DNA from: a phage
Length of the DNA stretch: 32,536 nucleotides
Assembly (NCBI GenBank): GCA_012925625.1
Contig: GCA_012925625.1_3625.1
Reading direction: 5' to 3' (one strand)
Position 1 is the first letter of the stretch, and the number at the start of each line of letters is the position of its first letter. Below are positions 5,528 through 10,534 of this stretch, one piece after another. Both the position numbers and the translations under genes were made by a program. Below the pieces are notes generated by a model that searched no databases, was not told where the DNA came from, and saw nothing but the letters and a program-made list of their open reading frames with translations.

Positions 5528-5609
5528 TATACTTGTTTCACGGCAGGCACCTGGCGACGGGTGGAGACAATCACCGGGCCTGCCTGTCATATAAGAACTA
5601 TAAAAACCG

Positions 5610-5638
5610 TTGACATCTGCCATGGGGGGAGGTAACAT
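5610..5638 (+). promoter_or_regulatory. sigma70-like promoter TTGACA-N17-TAACAT
   Basis: Consensus -35, weaker -10, upstream of the 5693 gene. Confidence 0.3.
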
Positions 5639-5692
5639 TTATCTTGAAGGGGCAAAGGTGCCCACACAACAACCAGGAGAGAGGAAAACACT

Positions 5693-6026: not shown

Positions 6027-6290
6027 ATGAAACGTCTTGATCAGCTCAAACTAGTTCAGTACATGGCCTACAAAGTTCTTGAAGTCCAAAAAGGTAGCAA
6101 AAAAGAGGTTTGCGAGAAAGCGTACAAGATCTTTACCCGTAAAAAAGATGATTGGATGTTACGCCAGACCAAAAAAGCCGATATCTTGGGGTACCTGGAA
6201 GAAGAGATCCGGCTTGAAGAACAAGAAGAGATCCGCCGTAGTGAAGCAGATTATCAGGCAGCTTGGGAAAACTGGATGAGTAACAAATAA
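6027..6290 (+). CDS. hypothetical Lys/Glu-rich protein (87 aa)
   Basis: Start at ATG 6027 with RBS AAAAGGT; the track ORF extends upstream without an RBS. Confidence 0.55.
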   Translation: MKRLDQLKLVQYMAYKVLEVQKGSKKEVCEKAYKIFTRKKDDWMLRQTKKADILGYLEEEIRLEEQEEIRRSEADYQAAWENWMSNK

Positions 6291-6434: not shown

Positions 6435-6854
6435 ATGAACATTAAATCTAATAATCCGGCATATAGCTTTGATAACGCTTTTTGTCACGGTCCGGCGGCG
6501 AAAGGATTCGAAATCGATGGTAAACTAATTATTGTCAATGTTGACGGGGAAGAGGTTGCAGTATATCCGGTGGCAGACGTTAAAAGCCGTTTGCAATGCC
6601 GCATGGATGTTACCGCCTACCAGCTTGATCCGGTCCGCATAGTTGCCCTGGTCCTGGAGGAAGAGATCAAAGCCATGCATCATAGCAACAAGTTTATCGG
6701 TGACGCGCAAGATAATATGAAGGTATGCCGCTATAAAGTTAATGAAGTGCTTAAAGAATATGGCTTCAAAGATCTGATGATCAAGCGTGATGAAAAATTC
6801 CGTTATCGTAACGACCTGGCAAATCGAATCTATGAAATATACGAATCATTATAA
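6435..6854 (+). CDS. hypothetical protein (139 aa)
   Basis: RBS AAGAGGTAAAAACACC then ATG; last plus-strand gene before the ORF-poor region. Confidence 0.65.
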   Translation: MNIKSNNPAYSFDNAFCHGPAAKGFEIDGKLIIVNVDGEEVAVYPVADVKSRLQCRMDVTAYQLDPVRIVALVLEEEIKAMHHSNKFIGDAQDNMKVCRYKVNEVLKEYGFKDLMIKRDEKFRYRNDLANRIYEIYESL

Positions 6855-6872
6855 TTTCTTAACTAAACTATC

Positions 6873-6900
6873 AGGGGCTTTAAAAGGCCCCTTTCTTTTT
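6873..6900 (+). terminator. intrinsic terminator GGGGCTTT-aa-AAGGCCCC + TTTCTTTTTG
   Basis: 8-bp stem with T-tract; ends the plus-strand transcription unit. Confidence 0.65.
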
Positions 6901-7517
6901 GTCTGTATTTCTCCTACCACAAACGGCCCTACCTGGCAAATGGAATAATTGACGAGCCATCAATCCCACACACTGTACAAATATACATGTAAAATAGCTA
7001 TTGCATAACCTTTCATTGTGTGGTAGCGGTGCTATTTTTTACCCGTTTTCCTTCCAAAGTTGCACGTAATGCAGTTATTGCACAAAATTTAACCTGATGC
7101 ACATCTTCAATACCTTGTCAACAACTAAAAATCTTTATAAGTCATACACTTACATAACCACAAAAGCGTGTTCTACGCGAAAAATCGAGTATAACTATAG
7201 CCGCCAGATCTCAGAATTCACGTACGCACGCCATTCTATAGCCTGCAAAGTATTTATTCCAACCACAGAATAACGGAATAGTCAATACCTGCATAAAATA
7301 ATTATTCGTGTAAACTGCATAACATAAATCAGCTCAGGTGTCAACATTTTTCGTAAACAGTCCGAAATTATCACGATGAGTTATCATAAACAGAGAAATC
7401 TTTAGTCGTCTAATGTTTACTGTACATTACTATACTGACTGGAATCATTAGATGACTAAGAGAAAGATAAGAAATAATTAATAATGTAATTATTTTACCT
7501 GTAACAATAAGGCAACT

Positions 7518-7750
7518 ATGCAAACGAATGGCATGGCGCGACGGAGTCGCGACATAATATAAAAGCAGTAACCATCACCCCCGTGATAGTTTGTCTGCAA
7601 ACTATTAATCAGATCATAGTTGCCTTGTATTTAGTTAATCATGACATAACAAGCAAGGCAACTATAGATCTTCTAATAGTTGCCCTGCTTTTATATTATG
7701 TCATATATTATTATCTTGTTAATTGTTTTCATGCAAACGAATGGCATGGC
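7518..7750. repeat. two copies of a 20-mer direct repeat ATGCAAACGAATGGCATGGC (7518-7537 and 7731-7750) bracketing an inverted-repeat cluster
   Basis: Exact 20/20 identity read directly from the sequence. Confidence 0.7.
7586..7684. repeat. cluster of ATAGTTGCC/GGCAACTAT inverted repeats, with further copies of the 9-mer at 7511-7519 and 7676-7684
   Basis: Palindrome ATAGTTTG-tctg-CAAACTAT (7586-7605); 12-bp inverted repeat ATAGTTGCCTTG (7616-7627) / CAAGGCAACTAT (7654-7665). Confidence 0.65.
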
Positions 7751-7851
7751 TTATCATATCTGCGTGAACAGTCTATGCATAAACAGTGAGATATGGAATA
7801 GTAACAATTGTTATTGTGTGCCAGATAAGTTTTGTCATGAAGTGCTTAAGG

Positions 7852-7879
7852 TGTCAAAAGTGACAATTTTGTCAGACAA
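7852..7879. promoter_or_regulatory. paired TGTCA/TGACA palindromes (TGTCA-aaag-TGACA and TTGTC-a-GACAA), operator-like
   Basis: Two perfect short palindromes 4 nt apart; further TTGTCA copies at 7833 and 7895. Confidence 0.35.
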
Positions 7880-8171
7880 GTTTTTCTCCTCTTTGTCAAG
7901 TGCTGCATGAAAAATTTACAATCTGGTATGGTAGCATTTTTGCGGCCCCGTTTACATTCAGTGATGTATGTATAAGCCTTGTTGTGTGGGCGTTTAGACG
8001 TCTAGACGGTTGGAAGTCCACAGGTCAATATCTAATCTATCGGCTGCTAACTATATCCCACACAAATAGTAAGAAATATAATTGTTATGCGTGTAAACAG
8101 TAACTCATGGTATCAATCCCTGTATGTATCGCCAGTGGTGCGCATAATAGGTATTATGTTAAATTGCCCGT

Positions 8172-8206
8172 AATGATAACTATTCTCACAATGATAGGTA
8201 TTCTCA
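8172..8206. repeat. iteron-like tandem repeat AATGATA(AC/GG)TATTCTCA x2, with related ATAGGTATT copies at 8148 and 8222
   Basis: Two 17-mers with 2 mismatches at an 18-bp period. Confidence 0.55.
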
Positions 8207-8401
8207 TTCACCCCCGCAAGATAGGTTGCAAATGTTGTGCCACTGTGTGAACGGCCTGGCCTATTAATTTGCCTCACTGCCTCGATATTTGAGAATTATT
8301 ATAAGAATGAGAAGTATTCCCATTTCGTCCGCCTGGCAGCACTCCAGTCGCTACCGCTCATGACAGGGCAGAACTGGGTCCATTCAGATATTTCTGGCTG
8401 A

Positions 8402-8634
8402 CTCTTCAGGCCTGTGTGGGAAAAGCCAACCTCTCCGGCGGCGGGGAGGGGTTTGTCAGGAAAATTGCAGGTCAATTAAAAAATTTACGGGGTATATGAA
8501 GCGCTCTTCAGATAAGGCATGTATTATGGGATGAAACCCTCTTCAGGCAATGATATTTGTGGGTGTGATATTTGCTGGAAAGCCAGATATGACGGGACTC
8601 CCGGCGGGGCAGGGGTAGTACAGACAGGGAAAAT
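8402..8634. repeat. duplicated G-rich element: copy A 8402-8464, copy B 8540-8634
   Basis: Both copies run CTTCAGG...GTGGG...AAAGCC...CTCC(C)GGCGG(C)GGGG(C)AGGGG...CAGG(G)AAAAT in the same order. Confidence 0.55.
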
Positions 8635-9312
8635 ATGGAGGATGTGGTTGGGTAAATTGATCAGGCAGGTAGAGTATGGAATATGTTACAGGTATGTTAA
8701 ATAGGGAGGCTGAATATCTGTAGGATTTGTGTGTAAAATCAAAGACTTAAGTGGTGTTGTGGTATTTTCTATAAATAATTCAAGTTTAATAGGTAATATT
8801 TGTCTCTATCCGCTTTGTGTGGTAAACAAATTCAGATGGTGTTGGTTTACAAGTGTATACATAATATACAAATTAAAGATACAAGAAACCCCCCCTCCCC
8901 CTTCGGCTACCATTCACCTTTTCCTCTGACTGGTACTTAAACACTTATTCAGACTCTTCAGGTTATCACCCATATATCATATGGCAGTGACTGGTGTCCT
9001 CCGGCCCCTCTTTCGTCACCCGTCCGCTTCGCCATGCTAATGCCATAGCCAATGGTTCGGTTGTTCACCCTGTTCACTCAGGTGTATCTCCATACCCCTT
9101 CAAACCGAAGAGAACAGAAAACCCGAATTACTCGGTAAAAGAAAAGAGAAGAACTTAATTTTATCAGGATAGGCAAGAATGTCAAGGCATGACTGCTCAC
9201 TAAACAAGCAAACAGTCATGTGTGGGAGGTAAGTGATTGTGGTGGTGGGAAATTTAGTTGAAAGATGTGTTATAGGTGCTTCCAGCACTTTAGCCGGGCA
9301 GCTAATTGTGTG

Positions 9313-9528
9313 TCAGTCCAGCGGTTCATCCTCTACTTCACTGAAATCAATGTTCATGGTCTCTTCCCAACCATCGATCTCAGCACAAGAGTGGAGTTCT
9401 TTAGGGTTTACTCCCAAAGCCTCAGCAACAGAGTCTATATTTAACACCTCTGGCAGGTATGTTTCATCGAATTCAAGGTAAATCAGGCCACGAGTGTTGT
9501 CAGCTCCACCAAATATTTCTATCTTCAT
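9313..9528 (-). CDS. hypothetical acidic protein (71 aa), last gene of the minus-strand unit
   Basis: ORF with RBS GAGGAG upstream of ATG at 9528. Confidence 0.55.
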   Translation of the reverse strand: MKIEIFGGADNTRGLIYLEFDETYLPEVLNIDSVAEALGVNPKELHSCAEIDGWEETMNIDFSEVEDEPLD

Positions 9529-9649
9529 GAAATCTCCTCTGGAAATGAGAGTGTGAACAGGGTTTTATACGTTCCAATGCACTGGAATTATACACGTTTG
9601 CCTCTTCAGGCCATGCTTTAGCATGAGGAACCTGTGTGGGCTCGGTGCT

Positions 9650-9862
9650 TCATAGTCTGCCACCTCTGAACTCTTCGTGCTCAGGCATAATGGAGAACCA
9701 GATGTCTACGATGTCTTCCCACGTTAGGTCATCAGCCTCAGGATCTACCTGGAGCGAAGATGGAGAATCTTCAGAATCGAAGTTTTCCTCTTTCACTGGC
9801 TCAGACAATGGACATATGGTCACTCCTTCGGATGTCTCTTCAGGTGCATGCGTGTTGATCAT
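9650..9862 (-). CDS. hypothetical acidic protein (70 aa)
   Basis: ORF in track; ATGA overlap with the upstream small ORF. Confidence 0.5.
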   Translation of the reverse strand: MINTHAPEETSEGVTICPLSEPVKEENFDSEDSPSSLQVDPEADDLTWEDIVDIWFSIMPEHEEFRGGRL

Positions 9863-9948
9863 GTTCCACCCGTGAGTATTCCGGCAACAGCCGCTATGGA
9901 CGTAATGATCATCAGGATCACTACTAAAACTTCGGACAATGTTCTCAT
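9859..9948 (-). CDS. small hydrophobic peptide (29 aa), not in ORF track
   Basis: MRTLSEVLVVILMIITSIAAVAGILTGGT; directly downstream of the 9981-10009 promoter; weak RBS. Confidence 0.3.
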   Translation of the reverse strand: MRTLSEVLVVILMIITSIAAVAGILTGGT

Positions 9949-9980
9949 TGTGTATTCCATATTCTACAAACTATGTGTGG

Positions 9981-10009
9981 ATACTATCACTGGAGCGGTA
10001 ATGTGTCAA
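9981..10009 (-). promoter_or_regulatory. sigma70-like promoter (minus strand) TTGACA-N17-TAGTAT
   Basis: Reverse complement of 10004-10009 is TTGACA and of 9981-9986 is TAGTAT. Confidence 0.45.
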
Positions 10010-10170
10010 TAGAAACGCCGCGAGGGTTTGGTTAAAATCCGAGCGTATGGTGATTTGGGTCAAAACGGACGTGCGTTCTCGCTACGCTCGAAATATGGAG
10101 TTGTTTGTAGGAAGCTCTTAAACTCTCTGTAACGAGATTATCTGTCCAAGGTATGCAATCGTGCACCAGA

Positions 10171-10197
10171 TAAAGAAAAGGACGCCACAGAGCGTCC
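10171..10197 (-). terminator. intrinsic terminator (minus strand) GGACGC-loop-GCGTCC + TTTTCTTTA
   Basis: Hairpin and T-tract on the minus strand immediately after the 10223 stop. Confidence 0.55.
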
Positions 10198-10222
10198 TAG
10201 GTGTCTTAAATTTGATATTTTG

Positions 10223-10534
10223 CTATACCCATGAGGGCTTATCAAGGTTGGAGTAGCTAAAAGGTGTCAAAAGGTGACTGTCAAAATCTCTCAAACTATC
10301 CAAATCTTTTTCCTCGTCCTGACACCATCTGTGCCTACATTTATTGTTGTAGTGCATAGAATGCATAGCGTTCTGCAACTTAACAGGCACAATTGATTCA
10401 GGAGTAGTTAGTATTGTTGGGTATGCCAGAACCACCTCAAACAGTGGAAACACATCGAAACTAAAATCTACCTCTGCAGAGGTTGATGGCATGTAGGAGT
10501 ATTTAGCCGTCTTTGTAGACATAATCCACCTCAC
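10223..10534 (-). CDS. hypothetical protein (103 aa)
   Basis: ORF; start overlaps upstream stop (ATGA-type coupling). Confidence 0.55.
   Translation of the reverse strand: MRWIMSTKTAKYSYMPSTSAEVDFSFDVFPLFEVVLAYPTILTTPESIVPVKLQNAMHSMHYNNKCRHRWCQDEEKDLDSLRDFDSHLLTPFSYSNLDKPSWV

Follow-up and report, generated by a model that had tools for sequence, protein, structure and literature searches.

We analysed a set of short repeats in a 32,536-nt stretch of phage DNA (GenBank assembly GCA_012925625.1). This whole stretch is called the window, and all coordinates are in window numbering unless another genome is named. The repeats comprise a 9-mer, CTCTTCAGG, and two diverged G-rich elements, A and B, with their surrounding boxes. 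They are real, conserved and oriented cis elements of the genome-end module of the Vequintavirinae: they stand beside the direct terminal repeat (DTR), are enriched and strand-biased, are conserved in the genus and across genera, and give no RNA-structure signal. It is possible, and this is the reading that we tentatively prefer, that they act as orientation-dependent DNA sites of the concatemer-junction module, for end processing or directional packaging. The element set is not described in the literature that we searched.

Location of the repeats at a genome end

The window is Vequintavirus (rV5-like) DNA; positions 7000–10000 are 90–99% identical to more than 100 records of Vequintavirus E. 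coli myoviruses. The repeats are found in a gene-free stretch of about 2.4 kb between two converging gene blocks. Genes on the + strand stop at 6854, and a clear intrinsic terminator (6873–6892, +; terminator scan) closes this left-hand block and delimits the gene-free region on the left. From the other side, − strand genes converge on it and end at 9313. Most curated records carry no annotation between the two blocks. In the rV5 genome paper the stretch appears as a "non-coding" box that separates genes 163 and 164, with no function assigned (PMC3606486); this 2-kb box has lacked an explanation since then.

Mapping of Gotham, HdK5 and bov10K2 placed a single copy of a 459-bp DTR, corresponding to the physical genome ends of this phage group, at 7875–8333. 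The 459-bp terminal repeat annotated in the Gotham record maps to this segment; according to the Gotham paper, the terminal repeats are 459 bp long and packaging starts at a fixed point (PMC7471380). Terminal redundancies of 458 bp were given for HdK5 and EdH4 (Korf et al., PMC6563267). We rebuilt the whole HdK5 genome (139,328 bp) and turned it to the window orientation for motif counts; its first 459 bp are identical to its last 459 bp (exact prefix = suffix). The first base of the bov10K2 record is the base that matches window 8334. The repeated elements therefore begin 69 bp inside one physical genome end. Viewed in the concatemer, they stand just to the right of the single DTR copy, and in virion DNA they lie 69–1500 bp inside one end. 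This abutment on the terminal repeat is the main context of the elements and was not visible to the author of a preliminary description of the DNA, which was made from the letters of the window.

The left DTR boundary coincides with the centre of a palindrome, TTGTCA/GACAA (7869–7879; the slash marks the boundary). Hypervariable, indel-rich segments (7750–7874 and 8345–8375) flank both DTR boundaries, and the DTR itself is highly conserved.

An enriched, strand-specific 9-mer

CTCTTCAGG occurs six times in the window, at 8402, 8539, 8954, 9602, 9836 and 25819, and five of these copies fall within 8402–9844. All six are on the + strand and none is on the − strand. The number expected from dinucleotide-preserving shuffles is 0.32 ± 0.63, and 0 of 100 shuffles reached six. 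The recurrence noticed in the preliminary description is thus real, its positions being off by up to 5 bases. Counted from the DTR, copy 1 (8402–8410, +) is part of element A and is followed 2 nt later by TGTGTGGG (8413–8420). Copy 2 (8504–8512, +) reads CTCTTCAGA in the window; among 11 aligned relatives it is CTCTTCAGG in nine and ATCTTCAGG in the remaining two. Copy 3 (8539–8547, +) starts element B, and copy 4 (8954–8962, +) is within a fully conserved block, 8900–9225. After copy 5 (9602–9610, +), TGTGTGGG appears again 22 nt later (9633–9640). Copy 6 (9836–9844, +) is CTCTTCAGA in most relatives and CTCTTTAGG in the most divergent one. Successive copies from 8402 to 9836 are spaced by 102, 35, 415, 648 and 234 bp, and no copy is present in 6900–8333, i.e. 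the DTR and its left flank.

The same bias is seen in HdK5, where seven copies of CTCTTCAGG share a strand (528, 630, 665, 1080, 1728, 18378 and 25878) and an eighth, at 109832, is on the opposite one; of these eight in 139 kb, five sit in the 1.2 kb directly after the left DTR. Across 12 aligned phages the 9-mer copies are near-invariant and the bases alongside them vary. A relation of the motif to −10 elements had also been raised. The motif has no consistent arrangement with −10 or −35 sites: the promoter scan gave no fixed distance from it to either hexamer, and the sole overlap is that of the copy at 8539 with a weak predicted −35 on the − strand. A ribosome-binding site or the start of a small open reading frame (ORF) was rejected, since by our own reading the distances to start codons vary inconsistently.

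A shorter box, TGTGTGG, is found on the + strand at 7983, 8413, 8816, 9219, 9633 and 9974, with near-regular spacings of 430, 403, 403, 414 and 341 bp that are the same in HdK5. Ancient tandem units of ~400 bp were considered as the source of this spacing and rejected, because the units fail to align (z ≤ 2.3).

Two diverged G-rich elements

Element A (8399–8465, +) has the sequence TGA-CTCTTCAGG-CC-TGTGTGGG-AAAAGCCA-ACCTCTCCGGCGGCGGGGAGGGG-TTTGT-CAGGAAAAT. Element B (8536–8634, +) reads ACC-CTCTTCAGG ... TGTGGG ... GAAAGCCA ... CTCCCGGCGGGGCAGGGG ... CAGGGAAAAT and can be described as A plus insertions. Their local alignment scores 48, compared with 16.5 ± 3.1 for shuffled sequences, and none of 1000 shuffles reached this value, which confirms that the two are diverged copies of one element as first proposed. 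The G-rich core of A, CTCCGGCGGCGGGGAGGGG (8433–8451, +), contains GGGGAGGG at 8443–8450, and that of B, CTCCCGGCGGGGCAGGGG (8598–8615, +), contains GGGCAGGG at 8607–8614. Element B is near-invariant in the 12 phages, and the G tract of A takes the forms GGGGAGGGG, GGGGCAGGGGG, GGGACAGGGGG, GGGCATGGGG, GGGAAGGG and GGGGAGTG among the relatives. According to our own reading of the alignment, five of the 12 phages have a 1-nt indel near 8639 that would disrupt the one sizeable ORF covering B; a coding role of this region is therefore unlikely.

Both C-rich tracts of the preliminary description exist, 1–2 bases from where they had been placed. The tract CCCCCCCTCCCCCTTCGG (8889–8906, +) differs among relatives only in the length of its C run, and its reverse complement includes GGGGAGGG. 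The tract CCTCCGGCCCCTC (8998–9010, +) is invariant in the 12 phages and carries the CCTCCGG core in direct orientation, as in the G-rich boxes, and not as their complement.

Several wider relationships were tried and rejected. CCTCCGG is not enriched and does not define a larger repeat family. For a canonical G-quadruplex, inspection by eye gave four G3 tracts in PVP-SE1 only; A and Hena1 lack them. Neither A nor B is flanked by terminal inverted repeats. A mobile repeat of the type of miniature inverted-repeat transposable elements was discarded on this ground and because the copies are limited to one locus; E. coli genomes contained none, nor did IMG/VR beyond the genus. When IMG/VR was scanned with a pattern for the elements in other viruses, it gave only Vequintavirus sequences and two chance matches. 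An origin from a repeat family of E. coli, or from its dif region, was rejected because 5,426 genomes gave no match.

Conservation within the genus and across genera

Within the genus, conservation was assessed in an alignment of 12 phages (the window and 11 relatives). The gene-free region is conserved at least as strongly as the flanking genes. It includes a gene-free block of 325 bp (8900–9225) that is identical in all 12, including one phage that is ~80% identical overall.

To reach other genera, we scanned IMG/VR for the arms of a dif-like site (see below). This led to a 148,842-bp contig, which is Erwinia phage Hena1 (Henunavirus) with an annotated terminal repeat of 519 bp. A segment of 66–80 bp spanning its right repeat boundary is conserved in Seunavirus phages, which led us to the corresponding gene-free region between convergent genes in PVP-SE1 and EC152. 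At the boundary, Hena1 and the Seunavirus phages have ..TTGTCCGTC/TA.. and the window has ..TTTCGTCCGCC/TGGCAG.., with a homologous core, ..GTCCGYC/T... To the right of it, the flanks of the window, Seunavirus (PVP-SE1, EC152) and Henunavirus (Hena1) are unalignable apart from short blocks. All 8-mers common to the right flanks of the window, PVP-SE1 and EC152 fall in GACTCTTCAGG, TTGTGTGG(G/T) or GGGGAGGGG. The CCTCCGGGCGGGGG form of the G-rich box is common to PVP-SE1, EC152 and Hena1, and the box lies 96 bp to the right of the boundary in the window, 73 bp in PVP-SE1, 123 bp in EC152 and 147 bp in Hena1. PVP-SE1 has six same-strand variants of the 9-mer (pattern C[TA]CTT[CT]AG[GA]; three copies of CACTTCAGG and one each of CTCTTTAGG, CTCTTTAGA and CTCTTCAGG) in 400 bp, compared with two elsewhere in the 5-kb locus. 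In EC152, GGCTGACTCTTCAGG is followed by TGTGTGG, as in element A. The persistence of these short blocks despite the divergence of their flanks is our best evidence for a function as sequence-specific sites. Synteny via a conserved gene for a 101-aa regulator was uninformative, as the other genera carry this gene in a different module.

The family of small repeats and the phage-specific motif, two options left by the preliminary description, hold in general form: the elements are non-random, strand-specific, conserved in the genus and shared with Seunavirus. They might still have no function at present and be selfish or decaying small repeats, or remnants of early-gene cassettes (promoter, stem-loop, CACACA, ribosome-binding site). 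The region does accept small hairpin-bearing insertions, in many phages A amounts to B with parts deleted, and early genes of the window have similar leaders composed of a hairpin, CCCACACA and a ribosome-binding site. However, the same short blocks persist across genera in flanks that have diverged past alignment, the 9-mer is fixed where its neighbours vary, the copies are limited to one locus and one strand, and searches of E. coli genomes and, beyond the genus, of IMG/VR gave no related elements. We consider an origin as functionless repeats improbable. The insertions themselves are 45–50 bp long with small hairpins (..CCCTTCGGG..); they were seen in one relative (L008) at the position of 9602 and in two others (L001, nomine, and L006) just to the right of the DTR boundary. 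One of them (45 bp) is flanked by a CTCTT duplication at the 9602 motif copy.

RNA structure

The preliminary description had put forward a structured non-coding RNA, with pairing between the G-rich tracts and distant C-rich ones. GGGGAGGGG is indeed complementary to CCCCTCCCC, the sequence is highly conserved and a strong predicted promoter lies nearby. Nonetheless, Rfam gave no match at gathering scores, nor at E ≤ 10 within 6800–10300. Folding of either strand of 8395–8650 and of the − strand of 8870–9152 gave z-scores of +0.59, −0.03 and −0.97, and hence no excess stability. Duplexes between the G and C tracts were no better than those with shuffled partners (−27.2 vs −23.6 ± 3.6 and −18.6 vs −21.3 ± 3.2 kcal mol−1), and changes in the G tract of A are unmatched in either C tract, so that no compensatory change supports the pairing. 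In addition, the tract at 8998 carries CCTCCGG in direct orientation, and by our own reading the other genera are without a matching C-rich partner. These data weakly refute the structured RNA, which we regard as highly unlikely.

A local hairpin (CCUCUCC...GGGGAGG) beats shuffled sequences only in copy A of the window (z = −2.29). The hairpins of B, PVP-SE1, EC152 and Hena1 are not above shuffles, nine of ten folds are non-significant, and an A-to-C change in Hena1 breaks the stem; the hairpin was therefore rejected as a conserved feature of the G-rich box. With no conservation of the fold, no Rfam match and no covariation, it is the sequence and not the fold that is conserved. A hammerhead-like core on the − strand (CCTGAAGAG, resembling CUGANGA) was dismissed, as Rfam reports no ribozyme at E ≤ 10.

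Transcription signals

A near-consensus, extended −10 sigma-70 promoter is predicted on the − strand at 9158–9185 (TTGACA-16-TG-n-TAAAAT; 11 of 12 matches plus the TG) within the block that is identical in the 12 phages. It points leftward over the motifs toward the DTR and has no gene downstream. A short hairpin (9135–9123) lies just past its predicted start. At the left edge of the DTR, the promoter scan gave a promoter-like site on the + strand (7893–7922, TTGTCA-18-TACAAT). By our own reading, PVP-SE1 and EC152 have TGTCAAG at the same place with TACAAA 18 nt further on, and Hena1 has TGTCAAG without a clear −10.

These signals bear on a role of the elements in transcription. The G-rich box could form a pause or termination hairpin for rightward transcripts from 7893–7922 and insulate the converging gene blocks; or it could be a pause site at the concatemer junction as in T7, with the stalled polymerase marking the DTR boundary; and CCTGAAGAG would act in a leftward non-coding transcript from 9185. 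Several observations agree with this. The G-rich box of PVP-SE1 is called by the terminator scan on the + strand and is terminator-like, with a stem of 7–8 bp followed by TGGGTTTTGA. Copy A folds better than shuffles, as given above. The geneless promoter crosses the motifs toward the DTR from a 100% conserved block, and the promoter-like site at the left DTR edge has a similar layout in PVP-SE1 and EC152. The authors of the rV5 paper expected bidirectional terminators in the gap and found none (PMC3606486). On the other hand, neither A nor B is called as a terminator in the window, and their T tracts are weak (GGTTTGT) or, in B, absent. The hairpins of B and of the other genera are no stabler than shuffles, with the stem broken in Hena1, and the motif has no fixed relation to any −10 or −35 site. 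On balance a role in transcription appears unlikely, though it deserves to be kept in mind.

A possible role in genome-end recognition

Our preferred reading, recognition of the elements as DNA by genome-end machinery, follows from their adjacency to the DTR, their orientation, the conservation of sequence rather than structure and the lack of a tie to genes or promoters; together these point to DNA-level recognition by a machinery that is directional. In the concatemer, one DTR copy (7875–8333) would lie between the converging gene blocks within a conserved gene-free module. Three blocks would serve as recognition sites in double-stranded DNA: CTCTTCAGG (bottom strand CCTGAAGAG), the adjoining TGTGTGG box, and CCTCCGG(G)CGG(G)GGNAGGGG. 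Proteins bound to them may work in one direction, either away from the DTR boundary (8333/8334) or toward it. The most likely user would be the terminase or end-processing machinery, cutting at the DTR boundaries and setting the direction of packaging, and leftward transcription from the 9185→9158 promoter across the motifs into the DTR may assist. We infer both the identity of the binding protein and the packaging role from this arrangement. The large terminase of HdK5 has a Terminase_6C nuclease domain, and its gene is split by an HNH gene.

Several points weigh against such a role. The copies are 35–650 bp apart and do not form a tight array of the T7 type, and none is present inside the DTR or on its left flank. 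A small annotated gene stands between the DTR and the copies at 9602 and 9836, a long way out for a packaging signal. Within the genus, A has a variable G tract and, in half of the relatives, has lost its 3′ tail. In Hena1 the G-rich box is present, yet clear copies of CTCTTCAGG are few (one weak match). The T7 heptamer repeats are not known to have a defined function, so that the analogy drawn below gives no mechanism.

Vequintavirinae are widely used as therapy and biocontrol phages. To our knowledge, end recognition and cutting in phages with short, exact terminal repeats are understood for T7 alone, and there only partly. The oriented, conserved blocks provide concrete targets for packaging assays. 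They could be of use in engineering, in the choice of safe insertion sites and as packaging signals for transducing particles, and in the correct orienting and trimming of assemblies.

The gene-free region could also be a replication origin or a primosome-loading zone, with iteron-like sites by the genome end. It is gene-free, conserved, rich in repeats and situated at a change in GC skew (PMC3606486), and a different large IMG/VR contig starts with DnaA boxes and dif-like sites. Next to A or B, however, we saw neither DnaA boxes nor an AT-rich unwinding element; the spacing of the copies is irregular, and the skew changes where transcription switches direction (PMC3606486). An origin is accordingly very unlikely in our view.

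Comparison with known systems

By analogy, the elements are most like the CCTAAAG array beside the terminal repeat of T7, with a different layout. T7 has 11 same-strand CCTAAAG heptamers in its first 340 bp. Eight of these directly follow the 160-bp terminal repeat, beginning 15 bp after it, and two more stand just before the right-hand terminal repeat. These short repeats are reportedly the SRL and SRR of Dunn and Studier (1983). In both cases a short core is present in many copies and in one orientation beside a short direct terminal repeat of an enterobacterial phage; here the orientation is 6/6 on the + strand in the window and 7 vs 1 in HdK5, with the first window copy 69 bp from the DTR. 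Even the word is nearly the same, CCTAAAG in T7 and CCT(A/G)AAG(A/T)G on the bottom strand of the window and PVP-SE1, and the CTCTTTAGG variant of PVP-SE1 reads CCTAAAG(AG) on its complementary strand. A promoter runs across the repeats into the terminal repeat in each (phiOR in T7, the predicted 9185 promoter in the window). The T7 arrays differ in being tight (13–54 bp) and in lying inside the repeat and on both its sides, whereas the window copies are 35–650 bp apart and on one side only. The window motif is furthermore accompanied by the G-rich and TGTGTGG boxes, and the phages themselves appear unrelated: T7 is a podovirus that encodes an RNA polymerase of its own, and the other is a 137-kb myovirus.

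The R sites of lambda cosB, the pac hexamers of P1 and the pac sites of SPP1 and P22 are short oriented boxes by the cut site that are bound by the small terminase subunit. The elements share with them the presence of several short oriented boxes, which in cosB and pac position the cut and the direction of packaging. The boxes in the window span ~1.5 kb, however, far beyond known pac or cos sites, and terminase binding is here a supposition. T4-type early regions contain promoter-stem-loop cassettes (PeSL), i.e. repeated short regulatory modules among small early genes, and the promoter-hairpin-CACACA-ribosome-binding site leaders of early genes in the window resemble them. The motifs described here differ from such cassettes in that they are not by gene starts and have no consistent promoter.

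A dif-like site within the terminal repeat

The DTR contains a dif-like XerC/XerD core site, GGTGCGCATAA-TAGGTA-TTATGTTAAAT (8137–8164, +), in which 25 of 28 bases are those of E. coli dif (GGTGCGCATAATGTATATTATGTTAAAT; PMC3025954). All 22 bases of the two 11-bp arms are identical, and the differences are confined to the central 6 bp. The site is present in 12/12 aligned Vequintaviruses, with TGGGTA as the central region in most. HdK5 has one in each DTR and none elsewhere. With one site per DTR, virion DNA carries two directly repeated XerCD-type sites, and recombination between these would give a circular genome; P1 cyclises its genome by Cre-lox. The site recurs in the same orientation in the predicted or annotated DTRs of Hena1 (central region GGTGTA), EC152 (CGTGTA) and PVP-SE1 (CGTGTA, with one mismatch in the XerC arm); in these records of other genera it is at L075:2312, L077:2311 and L076:289. 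No paper linking Vequintavirinae with Xer or dif was found in the literature searched, and the presence of a dif-like site in the DTR of four Vequintavirinae genera is apparently unreported. It raises the testable question of whether virulent phages use host Xer recombination.

The G-rich boxes of A and B could belong to the same system. The consensus of the FtsK-orienting polar sequences (KOPS) is GGGNAGGG (PMC2800217), and it is matched by GGGGAGGG at 8443 (+), GGGCAGGG at 8607 (+) and GGGGAGGG at 8893 (−). In this scheme, the boxes would load host FtsK and, as one module with the dif-like site, recruit FtsK and XerCD, or a phage-made XerD activator, to recombine the DTRs and cyclise the injected genome or to resolve replication multimers. 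The genus-specific central 6 bp would then favour recombination of phage with phage over integration at host dif. The boxes lie 280–730 bp from a site with exact XerC and XerD arms that is conserved in four genera, and PVP-SE1 and EC152 also have GGGGAGGG, its side and strand being the same there. However, polarity toward the nearby dif-like site is absent, A and B being oriented away from it, and HdK5 has ten matches on one strand and nine on the other, i.e. no genome-wide skew. The 8-mer is kept in B, PVP-SE1 and EC152 but lost in A of several phages (GGGACAGGG, GGGCATGGG, GGGGAGTG) and in Hena1, which has GGGGGCGGG. A neighbouring 87-aa protein (~6027–6290, +), called 'DNA translocase FtsK' in one record, has no FtsK or other significant domain in Pfam. 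Recruitment of FtsK and XerCD by such a module seems to us quite unlikely.

Between B and the C-rich tract lies a lone TATGTTAAAT (8693–8702) that matches 10 of 11 bases of the XerD arm and has no XerC arm alongside. An unrelated IMG/VR contig (L029, 154,976 bp) has near its start, at bases 180–400, four perfect DnaA boxes and after them two dif-like sites and a G-rich tract.

Further features of the region

Three AATGATA..TATTCTCA repeats are located in the DTR (8172–8188, 8190–8206 and 8306–8322), and PVP-SE1 and EC152 contain perfect TGAGAATTATTCTCA palindromes (L075:1051 and L077:1209). By eye, these repeats and palindromes resemble Fur boxes, and they have the appearance of operator sites of a dimeric protein. 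Repeats of the type G(T/C)G(T/A)AAACAGT are found at 7763–7800, 8086–8100 and 7296–7313, with an array of variable number just to the left of the DTR. Larger arrays of this type stand to the left of the DTR in V5 and in the relative L008, and a related sequence, GTGTAAACTGTCA, is found in the DTRs of PVP-SE1 and EC152. The fully conserved block to the left of the DTR (7400–7700) involves an exact 20-nt direct repeat, ATGCAAACGAATGGCATGGC (7518–7537 and 7731–7750), and a perfect 18-nt inverted repeat (7551–7568 and 7685–7702).

Early-gene leaders on the + strand (~640–730 and 5600–5690) are cassette-like, consisting of a promoter, a GC hairpin (GGGGCA..TGCCCC), ACACAA and a ribosome-binding site. 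Lastly, 19 Vequintavirus records (MG0656xx) bear the name 'Campylobacter phage' and are near-identical to E. coli phages; the two record headers that we inspected are both marked UNVERIFIED.

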